Shown: in pieces, positions 5,488-57,143 of the stretch
Layout of the letters: each line of letters opens with the position of its first letter
How positions within the stretch are numbered: position 1 is the first letter of the stretch
Origin: Bacteroidia bacterium
GTDB taxonomy: Bacteria > Bacteroidota > Bacteroidia > UBA4408
Direction: 5' to 3'
Assembly: GCA_023262495.1 (NCBI GenBank)
Contig: JALRAS010000001.1
Location: 4,486-68,485, forward strand
Length of the DNA stretch: 64,000 nucleotides
Notes under the pieces: model-generated
What the model was told of the DNA's origin: nothing
Databases searched by the model: none
What the model saw: the letters and a program-made list of their open reading frames with translations, nothing else
Position numbers and translations under genes: made by a program

Positions 5488-5562
5488 CCGATTACACTTT
5501 CAAAATAGTCCAATTTCGGCATTGCCTCATTGTACTATTTTCAAGTAGTATCAGCATTAACC
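5488..5562 (+). repeat. Intergenic repeat family X, copy 1
   Basis: ccgattacactttcaaaatagtccaatttcggcattgcctcattgtactattttcaagtagtatcagcattaacc is about 85% identical to 36079-36150. A shared 3' module aaataaatgcaattggtat follows at 5598-5616, and also occurs at 36307-36326. Confidence 0.8.
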
Positions 5563-5711
5563 ATTGCATATTTATTTTTTAGTTGGACTAAAAAATAAAT
5601 GCAATTGGTATAAATTGTAGCAAAAATTTACCTTGGTAAGAACAAATTTGGGCCATTGCTTATTACACATGAGCATGATTACAACAAGACTATGCCTGCA
5701 TTTGACTAAGT

Positions 5712-5745
5712 TGAACCCAAATTCCGCATTAGAAAATGCGGTTAA
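5712..5745 (-). repeat. Isolated Z 3' hairpin module in reverse orientation; candidate terminator for the FAD-oxidoreductase gene
   Basis: The reverse complement reads ccgcattttctaatgcggaatttgggttcaa, identical to the Z 3' module at 57104-57135. It is a stem-loop (ccgcatt/aatgcgg) that overlaps the stop codon of the 5742..6800 gene. Confidence 0.6.
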
Positions 5746-10996: not shown

Positions 10997-11063
10997 ATTA
11001 AAATATTTGCGCGAAAGTAATAAATATTAACGAGGTGAAATAGGTAATTCCCAAAACGCAATT

Positions 11064-11236
11064 AAACCCGAAAAAATCAGTAGAAGTAACGAATGTAACG
11101 CACTAGTGATTTTATGAGGACAATCCCGCTTAGCAGGTATTTTCAATCCATTGAACCAATGGATTGAATTACATCTGTTTTAGCGATTCCGCAATTTCTA
11201 ATGCGGAATATGGGATAAAACAAATTTAATTTCGAG
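11064..11236 (+). repeat. Intergenic repeat family Z, copy 1 (conserved 5' module, variable hairpin core, 3' hairpin module)
   Basis: It is near-identical over about 75 bp (…agaagtWacgMatgtaacgcactagtgattttaKRaggRcaatcccgcttagcaggt…) and over about 40 bp of 3' module (cgattccgcaWtttctaatgcggaatWtggg…ttaattttcgag) to 57003-57143. The central part is an unrelated perfect palindrome, tcaatccattgaaccaatggattga. Confidence 0.8.
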
Positions 11237-11375
11237 AATTATAGTTTACCCCATGTTAATCAATAGAATTTATCCCTTTGTTTATTACAATTTAGCCAAT
11301 GATTTCCCGAAATAATGCCGATAAAGTGTCTGCTACAGTTCAATCAATTGGACTGTTACAAAAAACCGTATCGGT

Positions 11376-11480
11376 ATTACGAATATGACGCACTAGTAAT
11401 TTTAGGCAAATTACACTTTCATTTTAGTTCCATTTTGGCATTTCCTTATTTTACTAATTTCAAGTAGTATCGGCATTAAC
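11376..11480 (+). repeat. Composite repeat: partial Z 5' module joined to family X, copy 2
   Basis: acgaatatgacgcactagtaatttta resembles the Z 5' module. It is followed by …ttacactttcattttagttccattttggcatttccttattttactaatttcaagtagtatcggcattaac, which matches family X at 5488-5562 and 36079-36150. Confidence 0.7.
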
Positions 11481-11616
11481 TAATACTGAATTGGGGTTTT
11501 AAGAATGAATCAGCAGTAAATTTCTTTGTGCACTACATTTACGTTATTACGATAATCAATGGATTATAATATAATAGGACATTAGTAGTTTTTTTTAAAA
11601 AACCTACAATATTTAT

Positions 11617-18241: not shown

Positions 18242-18736
18242 TTAGTTAAAAGTAATTTTACCGTTGGCAGTTTTAAATTTAATTTTATCGGCTTTATAGT
18301 TTACGACACGGCCCTCGTTTTTCGCAGGGGAAAAGTCGGGAAGCGTACTGATAGCTTGATTAATGGCATTAATAAGCGCAATCTCTGCGGGATTCTCTTT
18401 GTCGCTATACTTCAACAATTTTAAGCTACCCGCCACCCCTTTACAATTCACAATTATTTCAGCTACAATTGAGGCGTTACCATCGATGGCAGGCGTTGCA
18501 TCCAATTTTTGCTGAAGCAATTCTTTAAAAGGAACTTTTTTTGAGCCATCCTTATAAAATGGAGGTTGATCAGCATCGGTATAGTAACTCTCATCGCCAC
18601 ACAAAACCGTTTGTTTGCCGCGAGCTGCCGCATAATCAAGGGAGTCGGTCCAGCGTGTTCTTTTTTGGGCAGATGCATTGTTAGCGTTGAGCATAACAAA
18701 TCCACAGATTAAAATGAGCAGGTGAACAATTTTCAT
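18242..18736 (-). CDS. Secreted hypothetical protein. The ORF-track extension to 18991 is an artefact that reads through upstream repeat DNA
   Basis: The internal Met (MKIVHLLILICGFVMLNANNASAQ) starts a clean signal peptide. The extra 85 codons upstream are the translation of repeat Y copy A and are low-complexity. Confidence 0.5.
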   Translation of the reverse strand: MKIVHLLILICGFVMLNANNASAQKRTRWTDSLDYAAARGKQTVLCGDESYYTDADQPPFYKDGSKKVPFKELLQQKLDATPAIDGNASIVAEIIVNCKGVAGSLKLLKYSDKENPAEIALINAINQAISTLPDFSPAKNEGRVVNYKADKIKFKTANGKITFN

Positions 18737-18855
18737 AGGCCAATCAGTTTCAAGGATACAAAGTTTTAAAAAATATTGATATAAAGGCATACTCAGAAAT
18801 AATAAATGTTGAATATGAGCTTGCCGATAGCGAAAGTTTGCTTTAAACCCACATT

Positions 18856-18970
18856 TTAGCGCGCACAATAAAGGAAAGTACTTGATGCGCTGCAAACGTA
18901 TGTATTGTGCGTCCTCGTTGCAAACGAGGACGAGGGGAGGGCGTCCTCGTTGCAAACAAGGGAAGGGAAA
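18856..18970 (+). repeat. Intergenic repeat family Y, copy A (double hairpin with TTGCAAA loops; the second hairpin is duplicated)
   Basis: ttagcgcgca…aaaggaaagtacttgatgcgctgcaaacgta…gcgtcctcgttgcaaacgaggacgaggggagggcgtcctcgttgcaaacaagg. The stems gtcctcg/cgaggac flank the loop ttgcaaa. Confidence 0.8.
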
Positions 18971-19055
18971 TAAATAATGAACAAGAAACAAGGAATATTG
19001 AATTTGAATGATGAAGTTTTTTTTAGAAGGAATAATATTAATAAAACCTTGTAAT

Positions 19056-19078
19056 CATCCTCGTTTGCAACGAGGATG
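19056..19078 (-). repeat. Solo Y-type hairpin in inverted orientation
   Basis: catcctcgtttgcaacgaggatg is a perfect 8-bp stem with a tttgcaa loop, which is the reverse complement of the Y loop. Confidence 0.6.
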
Positions 19079-19128
19079 CTGTAAGTTTGCGTTTGGAATT
19101 CGTAGTTGGTAATTTTAATTGGCTCTAA

Positions 19129-19260
19129 TTAGCGCGCATAAAAAGGAAAGTGCTTGATGCGTTGCAAACGCATATATTGCCCGTCCTCGTTGCAAACAAG
19201 GACGAGGGGGTGATGAGGGGAAGAGCAATTGTATTATTTCAGGTAGTATCAGTATTACAC
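19129..19260 (+). repeat. Repeat family Y copy B followed by a partial X module
   Basis: ttagcgcgcataaaaaggaaagtgcttgatgcgttgcaaacgcatatattgcccgtcctcgttgcaaacaaggacgaggggg is about 90% identical to 36215-36290. It is followed by tattatttcaggtagtatcagtattacac, which is the X 3' end. Confidence 0.8.
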
Positions 19261-19261
19261 T

Positions 19262-19305
19262 ACAATCCAAAAATAAAAACGCCCCAACAATACTATGTTG
19301 AGGCG
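19262..19305 (-). terminator. Rho-independent terminator of the atpDC unit
   Basis: On the minus strand the sequence is aaacgcctcaacatagtattgttggggcgttt (7-bp GC-containing stem) followed by ttatttttgg, directly downstream of the atpC stop. Confidence 0.7.
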
Positions 19306-19327
19306 TTTAATTAAGTTGCGTGTGTGA

Positions 19328-19561
19328 TTACTCGGCTAGCACAATTACTTTGTTTTTAAGCACTTCTACAACGCCTCCTTTAATGGTAAAGCTTTGTGTG
19401 CCTGCATTATCGGTAATTTTCACTTTGCCTGCTTTTAAAGCGCTGATCATAGGAGCATGATTATTTAAGATTCCTAACGAACCATCGCTGCCCGGTAATG
19501 AAACCGATTTGATTTCGCCTTCAAACAATTTTTTATCAGGACTTATAATTTCTAAAAACAT
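19328..19561 (-). CDS. atpC: F0F1 ATP synthase subunit epsilon
   Basis: 77 aa. MFLEIISPDKKLFEGEIKSVSLPGSDGSLGIL…HAPMIS matches the epsilon N-terminal beta-sandwich. It lies directly downstream of atpD. Confidence 0.9.
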   Translation of the reverse strand: MFLEIISPDKKLFEGEIKSVSLPGSDGSLGILNNHAPMISALKAGKVKITDNAGTQSFTIKGGVVEVLKNKVIVLAE

Positions 19562-23945: not shown

Positions 23946-24650
23946 ATGGATTACAACCTTTTATTACTAGCGCTTGCTCCGGGTCTTGCTATCATGATTT
24001 TTGTTTATTGGAAAGATAAACTCGATAGAGAACCCAGAAGGTTATTGATATTAGCATTCTTATTGGGTTGTTTCAGCATCTTGCCTGCCATCATTTTCAA
24101 TTTGTTTCTATCGTTGGTATTGAATGTTGAGGTTAGCCATTCTATGTCTGTAACCTTTGCCTATGCTTTTTTTGTGGTTGCCCTCTCAGAGGAATTCAGC
24201 AAGTTTATACTTTTAAGTGGCGTATTATTCCCAAGGCCACAGTTTGACGAGCCCTACGATGGCATTACCTACTCTGTGATGATTGGGATGGGATTTGCCA
24301 CCCTTGAGAACGTGATGTATGTTTTTGAGGCTGAAGATGGTTACAGGATAGGTTGGCTGCGCGCTTTTACTGCTGTTCCTGCACATGCTACGTTTGCTGT
24401 GGCCATGGGTTACTTTGCCGGGTTGGCAAAATTTAATGCCGAAAAGAAATTTCTTTATTTGTTATCGGGCCTATTGTTGGCTATATTTTTGCATGGCTTT
24501 TATGATTTTTTATTGATGCAGAAAAACTATCCAATCATTGCCTTTGGTGCATTTGTTTCGGTTGGGATATCCATCTATTTTTCAATAAAAGCCATCAAAC
24601 TACACCAAAATATTTCTCCTCATCGAGAGAAGGAAAATTTTTTGAATTGA
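23946..24650 (+). CDS. PrsW-family intramembrane glutamic/metallo-protease
   Basis: Multi-pass membrane protein with the PrsW signature motifs EEFSKF, FATLENVMYV and HATFAVAMGYFAGL. Confidence 0.75.
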   Translation: MDYNLLLLALAPGLAIMIFVYWKDKLDREPRRLLILAFLLGCFSILPAIIFNLFLSLVLNVEVSHSMSVTFAYAFFVVALSEEFSKFILLSGVLFPRPQFDEPYDGITYSVMIGMGFATLENVMYVFEAEDGYRIGWLRAFTAVPAHATFAVAMGYFAGLAKFNAEKKFLYLLSGLLLAIFLHGFYDFLLMQKNYPIIAFGAFVSVGISIYFSIKAIKLHQNISPHREKENFLN

Positions 24651-24667
24651 TGAGAAATGGCGTACTA

Positions 24668-25228
24668 TTATATTTTTTTCCAGATTGATGCAAGTCTCTC
24701 ATTCTTCGGATAATTGTTATACTTATTCCGATACTCATTTTCGATATACTTAATTCGTTCATCAAGCAAAGGGTGCGAACTTAAAAATTCGGGTACATCT
24801 ATCGAACCTGCGTTTTTTTCTTTTAAATGTTTAAAGAGATTTACCATACCACTAGGATTCACACCTGATGCAATCAATAATTTTAATCCGTTTCGATCTG
24901 CTTCTTCCTCAAGCGCTCTTGTATAGCTTAGCGATTTTATTGTATGCGCATTTTCAAGAAGTACCCCCATGATTCCATTGATATCTGAAAGCACAATGGA
25001 AAGTATCACATAGGTTCCTAAGTTTCTGAACAAAGAACGAGTGGTGTGCTTAAAGGAAATGTGCGAGTATTCATGACATAGTAAGGCCGCAAATTCTTCC
25101 TCTGAATTCATTTGTTGTAATATTTCATCATACACTACAATGTTGCCACCGGGCAGTGCAAAGGCATTTTTTATAGGAGCGTTTACAACTGTGATGTGAA
25201 TGGGATAGTTGCTTTTGTATTTTAATGC
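24668..25228 (-). pseudogene. M48-family (Ste24/HtpX/BepA-like) zinc metallopeptidase, N-terminally truncated remnant
   Basis: The frame is open from a stop at 25229-25231. It contains NAFALPGGNIVVYDEIL, HEYSH (HExxH), the EEEAD third-ligand region and SHPLLDERI. There is no ATG for the first ~60 codons; the track's M at 25135 is a GTG. All three minus frames contain stops in 25229-25300, so the usual ~80-100 aa N-terminal part is absent. Confidence 0.5.
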
Positions 25229-25269
25229 TTAGCGCCCTAATGCAAATGCGCGATTAAAATTCTGGTTAC

Positions 25270-25569
25270 ATGAGGAATAAAAAATTTACACAATTATTGC
25301 TTAATATTGCAGTCCTATTAAGCAAATACATGAAAGACAAGGCAGTTTTTATTGCAAACATAACAAGTGGTATCACAGTTGGTGTTGCCAACTTGTTTGA
25401 CTTGTTGGGCTTCGCTAATTTGCTTGATAGCACCTATAAAAACGGTTCAGAAACTACTGCACAAGCTGATGCAATAGGCATATCATACTTCAAATTTAAA
25501 ACAGTAAAACTTGAGCATGATGTAAGAGGCAGGTTAAGAGAAATAAATTTTAATGGCATCAATAGTTAA
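25270..25569 (+). CDS. Hypothetical small ORF (99 aa) immediately upstream of tatC; coding status uncertain
   Basis: An ORF with a hydrophobic N-terminus (MRNKKFTQLLLNIAVLLS). It is not TatA-like. It occupies the position where the missing M48 N-terminus would be expected on the other strand. Confidence 0.25.
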   Translation: MRNKKFTQLLLNIAVLLSKYMKDKAVFIANITSGITVGVANLFDLLGFANLLDSTYKNGSETTAQADAIGISYFKFKTVKLEHDVRGRLREINFNGINS

Positions 25570-25612
25570 ATAGCAAGTGGGACTATTCAATAAAGGAAAA
25601 GATAATTCAGAA

Positions 25613-36078: not shown

Positions 36079-36150
36079 CCGATTACACTTTCAATATAGT
36101 CCCATTCCGGCATTGCCTCATTATACTATTTTCAGGTAGTATCGGTGTCT
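36079..36150 (+). repeat. Intergenic repeat family X, copy 3
   Basis: ccgattacactttcaatatagtcccattccggcattgcctcattatactattttcaggtagtatcggtg matches 5488-5562. Confidence 0.8.
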
Positions 36151-36214
36151 AATAATTCGAAATCATACTGTTTGATGTGGTACTTAGTAATTTTGTTTTC
36201 GCTAAAGGGCGCAT

Positions 36215-36326
36215 GAAAAAAGGAAAGTATTTGATGCGTTGCAAACGCATATATTGCCCATCCTCGTTGCAAACGAGGACGAGTGGTGGGAAATTAAATG
36301 TGCCCCAAAATAAATGCAATTGGTAT
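36215..36326 (+). repeat. Repeat family Y copy C plus the shared 3' module
   Basis: aaaaaaggaaagtatttgatgcgttgcaaacgcatatattgcccatcctcgttgcaaacgaggacgagtggtggg is followed by aaaataaatgcaattggtat, which also occurs at 5598-5616. Confidence 0.8.
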
Positions 36327-36443: not shown

Positions 36444-37352
36444 CTAATGCAAGATGAATTGGTTTAATGCCTCAATTACAATATTGGCATACTTAACTAT
36501 ATGCTGCCCAGGAATGTTTTCCCAGTACTTATTTTTTAAAATTAATGATTTTGACGCATTGGCAGCGCCCGAAATATGCGGAATACTAATCACATTCAAC
36601 ATCTCTTCCTTTTCAATTGATGGCTGTATAGTATTAATTTGAAGCCCCCCGAATGATGTGTTTTCCGACCAAATGTTTAATTTCTTATCATACAAATTAA
36701 GCAATGCATTTCCTGCATTATTTCCTAAAGTCAAGATAACAGACGGGCTAATAATTTTGATTTCCTTTTGTAAGATTTCGGCATGAGCGGGAAGACCTCT
36801 ATATGTTTTTAAAGCATTACTTTTAGAGAAAACTGTGTTGCCTTTTTTATCCTTTTTATTTTTTTCGATGTAAAAAAATAATTTAAAGATATCGGTCACG
36901 TAAATATTGAAGTGCTTAAGAATTTCACTAAAAAACTCAGCATTGGCATCGGTATTATTGTCAATTAAACTAAAGGGAGCCCAAAATCCAACCTGTTTCA
37001 ACAAACTTCCTTTGTTTCTATTTTTATACGCGATATGCTTACCTAAATTCTCTTCATTGGGGACAGGCGGTAATGCATCCATAGCACAGACCATAACCGT
37101 AGGTGCATTTTTTTTTGATGAACACTCCAAGTAAATTGGCAAATCGGTTGCAAATGACAGCGCTGTATGCCTCTCATTTACTTGATTAACAATAGCTAAA
37201 TAATTTGGATTTAAGGCTGAAAGTTCTGCAAAACTCAGTGTGTTTCGGAGTTCCTTTTTTTGTATTTCATTCAATACTTTGGAGTACTCCAATAACTCAT
37301 TGTAAATTAAGGACAATCTCCCATTACCGCAATTAACAAAACTGCTCTCCAA
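36444..37352 (-). CDS. Hypothetical protein with uracil-DNA-glycosylase-superfamily-like motifs (divergent)
   Basis: The order …NIYVTDIFK… (UDG vY.TN..KC-like), …PSVILTLGNNAGNALL… (UDG P.vivaLG..A-like) and …IPHISGAAN… (HPSP-like) matches the UDG fold, but the N-terminal active-site motif (GE.PG) is not conserved (CAMDALPP). Confidence 0.35.
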   Translation of the reverse strand: MESSFVNCGNGRLSLIYNELLEYSKVLNEIQKKELRNTLSFAELSALNPNYLAIVNQVNERHTALSFATDLPIYLECSSKKNAPTVMVCAMDALPPVPNEENLGKHIAYKNRNKGSLLKQVGFWAPFSLIDNNTDANAEFFSEILKHFNIYVTDIFKLFFYIEKNKKDKKGNTVFSKSNALKTYRGLPAHAEILQKEIKIISPSVILTLGNNAGNALLNLYDKKLNIWSENTSFGGLQINTIQPSIEKEEMLNVISIPHISGAANASKSLILKNKYWENIPGQHIVKYANIVIEALNQFILH

Positions 37353-56852: not shown

Positions 56853-57002
56853 GTAAAAAAATTAATTCGAGTATGTTACAAATATATTGTTTACATTTTA
56901 ATTCCGATTAAATTATTGATTAAATTTCTACCCCTATTTTGAGTACTAAAAAACATTCTCAATTCTTGTTTTTAATCTCCAATTTGACTGGCTCAACTTC
57001 AT

Positions 57003-57143
57003 TTAACCCGAATTAATCAATAGAAGTTACGCATGTAACGCACTAGTGATTTTAGAGGGCAATCCCGCTTAGCAGGTGTAATAATTACAGCTGTTTCATC
57101 GATTCCGCATTTTCTAATGCGGAATTTGGGTTTAATTTTCGAG
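57003..57143 (+). repeat. Intergenic repeat family Z, copy 2
   Basis: See 11064-11236. It has the same 5' module and the same 3' hairpin module (attccgcattttctaatgcggaat at 57102-57125) with a different short core. Confidence 0.8.

Follow-up and report, generated by a model that had tools for sequence, protein, structure and literature searches.

The double-hairpin repeats that we call Family Y are very probably REP-type elements of the Bacteroidota and the cognate DNA of a Bacteroidetes-specific REP-associated tyrosine transposase (RAYT, or TnpA-REP) of the subclass 2.6 type. We found them in the window, i.e., the whole 64-kb stretch of DNA analysed, and homology points to a RAYT reading single-stranded DNA hairpins as the likely partner of the window copies. 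This kind of repeat (REP/RAYT) is already known, and it agrees with the "atypical secondary structures" that Quentin et al. (2018, PMC6006769) described around subclass 2.6 genes; what the earlier note held to be unusual for REP-type elements belongs, according to the same study, to an atypical Bacteroidetes kind of REP element. Such an identity would explain the conspicuous intergenic repeats of an uncultured freshwater Bacteroidia genome.

As summarized in Table 1, the window carries three full double hairpins of about 63 to 80 nt, all on the + strand, as well as one extra second hairpin and one inverted, truncated copy. All pieces described in the earlier note were found at their coordinates, including the tandem duplicate of the second hairpin of copy A, which is partly degenerate, the third copy near 36215-36290, and the atpDC terminator. 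The motif CGTTGCAAACG, with at most one mismatch, matched 10 times in the window against 0.75 expected, the maximum in shuffles being 3. The window copies were scored with a covariance model, R1, which had been trained on copies from other genomes, and a scan of the whole 64 kb with R1 gave no further significant match beyond the five listed in Table 1. A repeat finder returned a three-copy family of 96 nt (18842-18937, 19114-19209, and 36191-36286) with 72 to 82% identity and spacings of 272 and 17077. Altogether, the 64 kb visible of the source genome hold two loci and about 4.5 copies.

Table 1. Family Y copies and neighbouring features in the window, with R1 scores
Feature	Position	Strand	Sequence elements	Evidence and remarks
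Copy A	18859-18941	+	lineage-specific leader GCGCGCACAATAAAGGAAAGTACTTG	sequence; R1 (18879-18941), 61.8 bits, E 3e-17
Copy A, hairpin 1	18885-18889, 18897-18901	+	ATGCG, CTGCAAA, CGTAT	followed by linker
Copy A, hairpin 2	18910-18917, 18925-18932	+	CGTCCTCG, TTGCAAA, CGAGGACG	tail AGGGG
Extra second hairpin, partly degenerate	18942-18964	+	CGTCCTCG TTGCAAA CAAGGGAA	sequence; R1 (18945-18961), 13.4 bits, partial match to model positions 35-51
AT-rich spacer S2, + copy to inverted copy	18965-19046	.		strain comparison of intergenic spacer
Inverted copy	19047-19111	-		R1 (19047-19111), 38.3 bits, E 5e-10
Inverted copy, hairpin 2	19057-19063, 19071-19077	-	ATCCTCG, TTTGCAA, CGAGGAT	intact
Inverted copy, hairpin 1	19087-19095	-	TTGCGTTTG	truncated after this sequence
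Rest of spacer S1, inverted copy to copy B	19112-19130	.		strain comparison
Copy B	19131-19213	+	leader GCGCGCATAAAAAGGAAAGTGCTTG	sequence; R1 (19151-19213), 59.8 bits, E 1e-16
Copy B, hairpin 1	19157-19161, 19169-19173	+	ATGCG, TTGCAAA, CGCAT	
Copy B, hairpin 2	19182-19189, 19197-19204	+	CGTCCTCG, TTGCAAA, CAAGGACG	one mismatch
Intrinsic terminator of atpDC	19277-19308	-	13-bp stem, then TTATTTTT	neighbour, outside the repeat
Copy C, singleton	36209-36290	+	leader GCGCATGAAAAAAGGAAAGTATTTG	sequence; R1 (36228-36290), 71.0 bits, E 4e-20
Copy C, hairpin 1	36234-36238, 36246-36250	+	ATGCG, TTGCAAA, CGCAT	
Copy C, hairpin 2	36259-36266, 36274-36281	+	CATCCTCG, TTGCAAA, CGAGGACG	common A.C mismatch at base; tail AGTGG

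The inverted hairpin at 19056-19078 had been taken for a solo element. The hairpin is present but not solo: it belongs to a full inverted copy, whose hairpin 1 is truncated in the window and intact in the related strains L007 and L008, and the intact form (...TGCGTTTGTAACGCAACC...) was found in L009 as well. That the copies lie upstream of minus-strand gene starts is likewise true but incidental, as both window loci sit equally just downstream of minus-strand gene ends (atpC at 19328 and a 302-aa open reading frame [ORF] at 36444), and spacers between divergent genes are the rarest context (7/80 among the copies listed). No database record was found for the 302-aa neighbour of copy C, and a look-up by the aminotransferase for an empty site of copy C in other strains yielded one 1.6-kb contig, which stops just before the copy.

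Comparison of strains that are ~96 to 99% identical in the flanks revealed that copy A occupies the same position in all of them and that the atpDC terminator is kept in all strains compared, while the distance from atpC to the next gene ranges from 309 to 1310 nt. The spacer downstream of atpC contains from one to at least four copies, depending on the strain, in alternating orientation like BIMEs, and spacer S2 belongs to a unit of ~272 nt, of which strains L007 and L008 have repeats. Because these differences sit within an array, unequal recombination suffices to explain them, and the copy numbers can be accounted for without any transposase. In the strain contigs, several gene calls start within the repeat.

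The Family Y unit consists of two direct-order hairpins; hairpin 1 has a short stem and hairpin 2 a stem of ~8 bp, both share the apex CGTT-GCA-AACG, and the 3' end of the unit reads ..GACGAGTGG. In the source lineage, the conserved unit includes a further ~20 to 30 nt 5' of hairpin 1 (GCGCAT..AAAGGAAAG..), and its last letters are GACGAG(T/G)GG. DNA folds of the window copies gave z-scores of -2.9 to -4.8, and by these folds the TTGCAAA described earlier as a loop is better read as two T-A pairs that close a GCA triloop; the conserved element is the hairpin apex. A leader-linker pairing seen in copy A was dropped, since inspection showed it at best partially in L005 and not at all in the other copies checked.

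Covariation was evaluated on alignment A1, which comprises 73 non-identical copies from many genomes. In A1, 86.4% of the cells were paired versus 69.3% in shuffles, and the covariation score was 0.370 versus 0.112 for shuffled alignments (0/500 reaching the observed value) and at most 0.124 for slid partners. Changes on both sides were found in 8 of 13 pairs, with compensatory changes in both helices. These results indicated that the hairpin structure is under selection, and since compensatory stem variation was found, they speak against the simple decaying MITE considered in the earlier note. The picture of a conserved tip on changing stems holds as well, with the apex kept and the stems substituting in a compensatory manner. 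The search pattern fixed the apex CGTT-GCA-AACG and left the basal stems free, so the invariance of the apex within A1 is by construction; at RAYT loci picked by protein similarity alone, the apex was TTnnAAA with a variable centre and a sometimes expanded loop.

Mismatches in helix 2 were strand-asymmetric (51 A.C versus 3 G.T), suggesting that one strand is the folding one. For the three full copies at two loci, the better-folding bottom strand fits the lagging-strand template, provided that the negative GC skew identifies the + strand as the lagging one. The flank following helix 2 is conserved in A1, with an A at column 55 (67/73) and then a G (50/73), both within the 3'-terminal sequence given above. 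GT[AG]G was found at the foot of neither hairpin in A1, i.e., the canonical 5' REP foot is lacking, and helix 2 begins differently across the family (CGTC, CATC, CCCC, GCAC, and CACC).

A genome pattern, GTTGCAAACG-N12-24-CGTTGCAAAC, matched at least 119 genome stretches, nearly all of them from Bacteroidota of many orders, and ~15 matches elsewhere look like chance. The span was exactly 37 nt in 106 of 167 cases among the matches listed. Of the copies listed, 110/119 were extragenic and 9/119 fell within ORFs of 100 aa or more, whereas 70% of random positions fell inside such ORFs, and the neighbour genes were unrelated from genome to genome. In Sphingobacterium sp. MYb382, copies were dispersed over no fewer than 10 distinct 8-kb blocks, and none of the fetched copy-bearing blocks contained a RAYT; in Chitinophagales SGMAG-61, they were dispersed over at least five such blocks. 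A full-text literature search for the motif returned unrelated PCR primers only.

A homologous protein of 182 aa was encoded in 12 of the 119 8-kb stretches (among the matches listed). It scored 94.3 and 99.9 bits with the NCBIfam model NF047646, "REP-associated tyrosine transposase" (cut-off 80), matched Pfam Y1_Tnp, and reached 17 to 27 bits with the IS200 model, below the cut-off of 55. Invariant residues in these RAYTs are H61, the Y145-x-H-x-N-P motif (Y145, H147, N149, and P150), and S165-S166; the HuH motif is (N/S)H-x-H, YIH[ENQ]NP is the prevailing form of the Tyr motif, located 84 aa from HuH, and the residue after a W is K, T, R, or Q. Comparing the RAYT sequence with the PDB told little (4ER8, E 0.69), and a fold search was needed: the AlphaFold model (pLDDT 89.8) gave as its best PDB match 4ER8, the E. 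coli TnpA-REP bound to a REP hairpin (E 3.4e-8; TM 0.61/0.67), and IS200/IS605 transposases came next.

In 10 of the 12 cases, the RAYT gene had copies on either side within ~100 nt, those to the left in minus and those to the right in plus orientation, and one locus (L011) possessed five to six copies per side. Inverted flanks were also present at all RAYT loci chosen by the protein and having both flanks (L146-L150, L141/L142, and L134). Whole units arrayed in inverted orientation make up the flanks, which lack distinct left and right ends, and a TnpB-like second gene was called at none of the loci with genes listed. On contig L132, the RAYT lies among copies that match, in both hairpins and in the 8-nt spacing, a motif derived from the window copies, ATGCGTTGCAAACGCATAT-N8-TCCTCGTTGCAAAC. 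Moreover, RAYT-flanking and dispersed copies of one genome have common lineage-specific stems (e.g., L116/L070 and L034/L045). The hpf/S30AE gene adjoins the RAYT in L011 and its close relative L134 only, and because it is limited to these two, this synteny is uninformative.

In the 64-kb window itself, tblastn detected no RAYT gene, and the best profile-HMM match had an E value of 0.057. Look-ups of the homologues P0003, P0005, P0015, and P0016 for the RAYT of the source species led to contigs of other samples or species. A lineage-specific DNA pattern retrieved, from the JGI metagenome collection, only four contigs, all from another organism whose repeat is very similar, and a RAYT lies on one of the four.

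We infer from homology that Family Y is mobilised by the RAYT. As in the homologous systems of E. coli TnpA-REP and of IS200/IS605 TnpA, hairpins would form on single-stranded DNA, e.g., the lagging-strand template, where the HUH/Tyr enzyme would recognise them, here probably via the invariant apex, and cut and rejoin beside them, by which new copies could be seeded. Arrays such as that at atpC may then lengthen or shorten through recombination between copies, and any effects on neighbouring transcripts would be secondary. The earlier proposal of a protein-binding site is probably correct, with single-stranded hairpins bound by a RAYT, as homology suggests, in place of a palindromic operator on duplex DNA.

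Recognition by classical RAYTs and by IS200/IS605 transposases relies on a foot or guide tetranucleotide. A tentative idea, which we consider possible though doubtful, is that subclass-2.6-type RAYTs read instead the hairpin apex (CGTT-GCA-AACG), twice and at a fixed distance; the candidate reader would be a 21-aa insertion by the REP-binding surface, noted by Quentin et al. (PMC6006769). If true, one recognition code would be kept over most Bacteroidota orders while the stems drift freely, the REP architecture would be a distinct one, with a two-hairpin unit whose strand is marked by a conserved G.T (A.C) mismatch, and enzyme and hairpins would make up a compact, portable protein/single-strand-DNA recognition pair.

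Other explanations were weighed against the REP/RAYT assignment. Stem covariation fits RNA equally well, and the copies favour sites by at least one gene 3' end, as the scarcity of copies between divergent genes attests; a structured small RNA or cis-regulatory RNA (a site for an RNA-binding protein, an mRNA 3'-end stabiliser, or a terminator) is nevertheless improbable. No Rfam 15 family matched in the window at gathering thresholds, the best score within 18700-19350 being 24.3 versus 65.3 bits, orientation relative to co-directional flanking genes showed no preference (24 versus 28 among the copies listed), both orientations occur inside one array, and an RNA function would leave unexplained why inverted copies closely flank a transposase gene. 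The small RNA suggested in the earlier note was accordingly not borne out. E. coli REPs stabilise upstream mRNA, and by this analogy a secondary mRNA-stabilising role is possible. Terminator function was rejected, with a T-run following neither hairpin and a terminator scan finding the atpC terminator alone. A double-stranded operator, at which a dimeric transcription factor would bind the self-complementary TTGCAA and regulate the downstream minus-strand genes, has very little probability: the sequence is indeed palindromic and the copies lie 120 to 350 nt upstream of the gene starts at 18736 and 35869, but the flanking bases covary as stems, which operators do not require, the neighbour genes differ across genomes, divergent promoter-only spacers are the rarest site, and near-identical strains carry from one to at least four copies in one spacer. 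A Bacteroidota promoter on the bottom strand (-33 TTTG/-7 TAnnTTTG) was also considered and, by inspection, rejected; the TTTGs are ~28 nt apart with no rightly placed TA, and the motif is missing in other lineages.

An ATG opens the same frame in all three window copies, an AGGA-like motif lies ~8 nt upstream, and by inspection three of the five differences between copies A and B in the shared frame are synonymous, as if each copy were a tiny gene for a Cys-rich peptide (MRCKRIYCPSSLQTRTRG...; MRCKRIYC...) preceded by AGGAAAG. We rejected this reading, whose probability is practically negligible, because the cross-genome alignment confines ATG and frame to this lineage: the ATG is the 5' arm of hairpin 1, which elsewhere reads GGGCG, AAGCG, AATCG, etc., without a start codon. 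Furthermore, the three frames diverge past the repeat, stopping at 18, 30, and 53 aa, and inverted and truncated copies exist. It is also improbable that the repeats are a true IS200/IS605 relic or non-autonomous ends (PATE/MITE), or that this genome has no active enzyme and recombination is now their sole means of spreading. The associated protein belongs to the Y1 HUH transposases and is a relative of IS200 TnpA, no RAYT was found in the window, and changes in array length need recombination alone; on the other side, the protein passes the RAYT equivalog model and fails the IS200 model, its best structural match is TnpA-REP, the flanks are whole-unit inverted arrays with no TnpB-like neighbour where genes are listed, and the gene is far outnumbered by dispersed copies, as the RAYT-less blocks of Sphingobacterium sp. 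MYb382 illustrate.

The assignment of Family Y to REP-type elements would explain assembly breaks at these repeats, as three strain contigs end within the atpC-downstream array and most RAYT contigs are only 1 to 2 kb long. The "atypical secondary structures" of subclass 2.6 are sharpened to a defined two-hairpin unit, whose DNA-recognition rule is testable in vitro. The consensus and the covariance model can be used for annotating Family Y elements across Bacteroidota; without such annotation, the elements could be mistaken for small RNAs, small ORFs, or regulatory sites.

The E. coli REP/BIME and TnpA-REP system, reportedly the subject of work by Ton-Hoang et al. and Messing et al. in 2012, is resembled by Family Y in its extragenic imperfect palindromes, its alternating-orientation clusters with specific spacers, the location of the gene between inverted copies (REPtron), and the HUH/Tyr fold with 4ER8 as the best structural match. 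In contrast to E. coli REPs, Family Y has no GTAG guide tetranucleotide, it combines two different hairpins in direct order, and the apex rather than the foot is conserved, while the protein has negligible sequence similarity to 4ER8. With the REPINs of Pseudomonas, which are said to go with RAYT groups 2 and 3 (Bertels and Rainey in 2011), it shares inverted doublets, such as the one formed in the window by copy A and, ~105 nt away, the inverted copy, or the head-to-head pairs of L130-L132 with a conserved ~105-nt spacer, and a RAYT that appears rare rather than multicopy; unlike REPINs, the spacers are far longer than the classical ones, and singletons such as copy C exist. Single-strand hairpins acting with a Y1 HUH enzyme, imperfect palindromes, and a strand-asymmetric mismatch also recall IS200/IS605 subterminal hairpins and PATEs, whereas distinct left and right ends, TnpB, and a match to the IS200 model are lacking here.

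CGTC-tagged REPs are described by Di Nocera et al. (2013, PMC3733652) as occurring in Bacteroidetes among other phyla, with a terminal CGTC, an 8- to 9-bp stem with A-T pairs first (AT), a loop of 4 to 5 nt, a CCA tail, and no transposase. CGTC is, coincidentally, also the start of hairpin 2 in the window copies, but by that description Family Y differs in its variable helix 2 start, its AGTGG tail, and its association with a transposase. The closest description is that of subclass 2.6 by Quentin et al. (2018, PMC6006769), where these TnpA-REPs, equated with RAYT group 5 of Bertels et al., are mostly from Bacteroidetes, have 179 aa, NH[LIV]H, YIH[QN]NP, W-Q, and SS motifs, and a median HuH-to-Tyr distance of 82 aa, and are encoded by genes "flanked by atypical secondary structures" with copies elsewhere in the genome. 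Our RAYTs agree in their Bacteroidota hosts, length (182 versus 179 aa), (N/S)H-x-H, HuH-to-Tyr distance (84 versus 82 aa), YIHxNP, C-terminal SS, and a gene flanked by GT[AG]G-less hairpins with copies elsewhere, a likeness judged by the published description (length, motifs, and hosts); they differ in allowing E in YIH[ENQ]NP and K, T, or R besides Q after the W. Table S1 of that study gives hairpins such as GCACGGATTGCAAATCCGCGC (F. johnsoniae), GCGCTCGTTTGTAACGAGTGC (Zobellia), and CGGATTTGCAATCCG (B. xylanisolvens), and several share with Family Y a TTGCAAA, TTTGTAA, or TTACAAA apex and a basal A.C mismatch. While the accessible text of Quentin et al. (PMC6006769) lists single, manually found hairpins, termed atypical, the element seen here is a two-hairpin unit with a 37-nt spacing, a phylum-wide apex, and a GACGAGTGG tail, features that go beyond that text.

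The spacer holding the Y array was bounded by the gene of a 164-aa protein (minus strand, start 18736) and by atpC (stop 19328), the latter forming a separate gene pair with atpD (77 and 502 aa, respectively). The two direct double hairpins reported in the earlier note were present in this spacer, 272 nt apart, and so was the third copy, which the repeat search of the window placed at 36191-36286. With at most one mismatch, CGTTGCAAACG occurred 10 times in the window (37% G+C, from a Bacteroidota genome), versus 0.75 expected. R1, a covariance model of the Y unit built from copies in other genomes, recovered the matches listed in the table and no further significant one in the 64-kb window. 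Its minus-strand match indicated that the hairpin described as solo and inverted is hairpin 2 of a full inverted copy; the hairpin 1 belonging to it has been truncated in the window strain and is intact in the strain contigs L007-L009. DNA folding of both hairpins yielded two T-A pairs closed under a GCA triloop; the conserved "loop" is really an apex, CGTT-GCA-AACG. The window ORF 18242-18991 runs through Y copy A, the signal peptide of the 164-aa secreted protein starting at ATG 18736; automatic calls of this protein begin inside a Y repeat in several of the strain contigs L001-L010, with products of 219, 226 or 258 aa.

Family Y matches and other repeats and blocks (window coordinates unless a contig is named)
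Feature	Position	Strand	Source
Y copy C	36228-36290	+	R1, 71 bits
Y copy A	18879-18941	+	R1, 61.8 bits
Y copy B	19151-19213	+	R1, 59.8 bits
Y copy, inverted, hairpin 1 truncated	19047-19111	-	R1, 38.3 bits
Additional hairpin 2	18945-18961		R1
Second repeat family	5491-5572, 11410-11491, 36082-36163; partial 19232-19262
Third repeat family, two modules	11061-11272, 57001-57140; partial 5714-5741; L010 431-473
Strain-variable block	24596-25608
M48 peptidase-like fragment	24671-25225	-

When one genome per species was scanned for the pattern GTTGCAAACG-N12-24-CGTTGCAAAC, which fixed the apex and left the stems free, at least 119 stretches matched. About 15 of the 119 listed were at chance level (other phyla, no hairpins, odd spacing), and the remainder came from many orders of Bacteroidota, including Flavipsychrobacter, Taibaiella, Mucilaginibacter, Sphingobacterium, Hymenobacter, Runella, Mariniphaga, Draconibacterium, Crocinitomicaceae and Flavobacteriales; among the matches listed, 106 of 167 spanned exactly 37 nt, the window value. 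The two-hairpin structure is under selection. In 73 distinct copies, 86.4% of cells were paired versus 69.3% in shuffles, and the covariation score was 0.370, a value that none of 500 shuffles reached (shuffles scored 0.112, and slid partners at most 0.124), the stem variants including TCCTCG/CGAGGA, TCCGCG/CGCGGA, CCCTCG/CGAGGG and CACGCG/CGCGCG. The compensatory changes proposed as a check in the earlier note were found; the conserved loop TTGCAA(A) that it describes is better read as an apex with two T-A pairs. An A.C mismatch occupied the base of helix 2 in 29 of the 73 copies (51 A.C versus 3 G.T in helix 2 overall); since A.C mismatches are G.T wobbles on the complement, the bottom strand is suggested to be the one that folds. 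A conserved A-G lies 3' of helix 2, inside ..GACGAGTGG. Dispersal is extragenic, with 9 of the 119 listed copies inside ORFs versus 70% of random positions, and divergent-gene spacers were the rarest location among the matches listed (7 of 80).

In loci of relatives, inverted Y copies flank a RAYT gene. At one such locus (L011), five to six minus-oriented copies on the left and five plus-oriented copies on the right enclosed an ORF of 182 aa with the motifs (N/S)H-x-H and YIHENP, whose product matched Pfam Y1_Tnp, scored 99.9 bits against the NCBIfam model NF047646 ('REP-associated tyrosine transposase'), above its cut-off of 80, and failed the IS200 model. RAYT homologues were found in 12 of the 119 listed stretches and none in the 64-kb window, nor was one recovered for the source genome. 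Around ten of the 12 genes, Y copies lay no more than ~100 nt away on either side, those to the left minus-oriented and those to the right plus-oriented. In a pattern-free test, homologues were selected purely on protein similarity, and some of their loci were inspected; the set comprised 1202 proteins at E<=1e-10, of which several bear the JGI name 'REP element-mobilizing transposase RayT'. The protein-chosen loci L146-L150, L141/L142 and L134 all carried the same inverted flanks, with apices TT[GACT][CTA]AAA, TTGCAAA dominating in hairpin 2, and in some lineages an expanded loop keeping TTAC...AAA (CGTTAC-CGCTTTCGCTC-AAACG in hairpin 2 of L148, L149 and L150). In L148-L150, left- and right-flank copies of one RAYT were of two subtypes, reminiscent of the E. 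coli Y and Z REPs. Homologues lay mostly on contigs of only ~1-2 kb, consistent with assemblies breaking in flanking repeat arrays. On L132, a 1.27-kb metagenome contig from a species other than that of the window, a RAYT was embedded among Y copies whose two hairpins and 8-nt spacing fit the window-derived motif, and a 25-nt piece of the third window repeat family lay beside a Y copy. The AlphaFold model of the RAYT family (pLDDT 89.8) had its best match in 4ER8, the structure of TnpA-REP bound to a REP hairpin (E 3.4e-8, TM 0.61/0.67), and then in IS200/IS605 transposases.

Ten metagenome or MAG contigs (L001-L010) shared an identical atpC, with flanks ~96-99% identical to the window. The spacer from atpC to the next gene measured 309, 310, 341, 591 (window), 1079 or 1310 nt, and three more strain contigs terminated within Y repeats. 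The shortest state held one Y copy, at the copy A/B position; longer spacers gained a ~272-nt unit of plus copy, AT-rich spacer, inverted copy and second spacer, an alternating orientation like that of E. coli BIMEs. In L002, L004 and L010, small repeats of other kinds were inserted beside or into Y copies. These spacer and copy-number differences indicated that the locus is dynamic, and because all changes lie within the array, recombination alone could have produced them. No empty site of a singleton Y copy turned up in other strains, the one 1.6-kb contig recovered for copy C ending just short of it. L002 and L004 had a further ~230-nt insert of two to three tandem units between two Y copies, beginning right inside an inverted hairpin 2 (..CATCCTC|CCCAAGTAGTCGCTAAGC..) and followed by a variant copy with apices TTATAAA and TTGAAAA. 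In L010 (~483-530, equivalent to window copy A/B), hairpin 2 of an otherwise plus-oriented copy had the loop TTTGCAA instead of TTGCAAA between perfectly palindromic arms; this flipped apex reflects a genuine inversion of the hairpin or an error of assembly.

The second repeat family (~82 nt; ATTACACTTTCA..CGGCATTGCCTCATT.TACTATTTTCA(A/G)GTAGTATC..) showed no obvious hairpin; one of its copies precedes Y copy C by 45 nt, and a partial tail (TATTATTTCAGGTAGTATCAGTATTACAC) separates copy B from the atpC terminator in all strains. One module of the third family contains the hairpin GATTCCGCATTTTCTAATGCGGAAT, and a 43-nt piece was inserted directly after a Y copy in L010. The strain-variable block was missing from L001; L002 and L004 carried a full DUF898 + M48 pair at its site, and such a pair directly adjoins the RAYT in L146, an unrelated genome.

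The earlier note had offered a structured small RNA or a protein-binding site. The former found no support in Rfam, and among the matches listed Y showed no orientation bias relative to co-directional neighbour genes (24 versus 28); the latter, read as a double-stranded operator, does not predict the stem covariation that is seen. A terminator reading failed for lack of a T-run, and a peptide reading because the ATG it needs is part of a stem arm specific to this lineage. The mRNAs of adjacent genes may be affected as a secondary matter. The observation in the earlier note was correct, and the element is of an ordinary type: Y is most probably a REP family whose cognate enzyme is a Bacteroidota RAYT.

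By analogy with E. coli TnpA-REP and IS200/IS605, the Y hairpins would form on single-stranded DNA, an HUH/Tyr enzyme would recognise them and cut and rejoin beside them, and the arrays would then change through recombination. As the apex is invariant and the stems drift freely, the enzyme is suggested to read the apex, and the strand-asymmetric mismatch suggests which strand is used. The putative folding strand of all three full window copies, which represent two loci only, lay on the lagging-strand template suggested by GC skew.

A full-text literature search for the Y motif returned primers only, and a two-hairpin unit with a phylum-wide apex is apparently not yet described. The CGTC-tagged REPs of Di Nocera et al. 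2013, which lack a transposase, form a class separate from Y. Group 5 RAYTs are flanked by moderately abundant 16-mers, with 31 occurrences (Bertels et al. 2017), and correspond to TnpA-REP subclass 2.6 of Quentin et al. 2018 (PMC6006769), mostly from Bacteroidetes, with 179 aa, NH[LIV]H, YIH[QN]NP, a C-terminal SS and ~82 aa from HuH to Tyr. The Y-linked RAYTs agree with that description (182 aa, 84 aa from HuH to Tyr, invariant SS), with small departures (YIH[ENQ]NP; W then K, T, R or Q). Among the Table S1 entries of PMC6006769, the hairpins of F. johnsoniae (GCACGGATTGCAAATCCGCGC), Zobellia (GCGCTCGTTTGTAACGAGTGC) and B. xylanisolvens (CGGATTTGCAATCCG) share the apex and the basal mismatch of Y.
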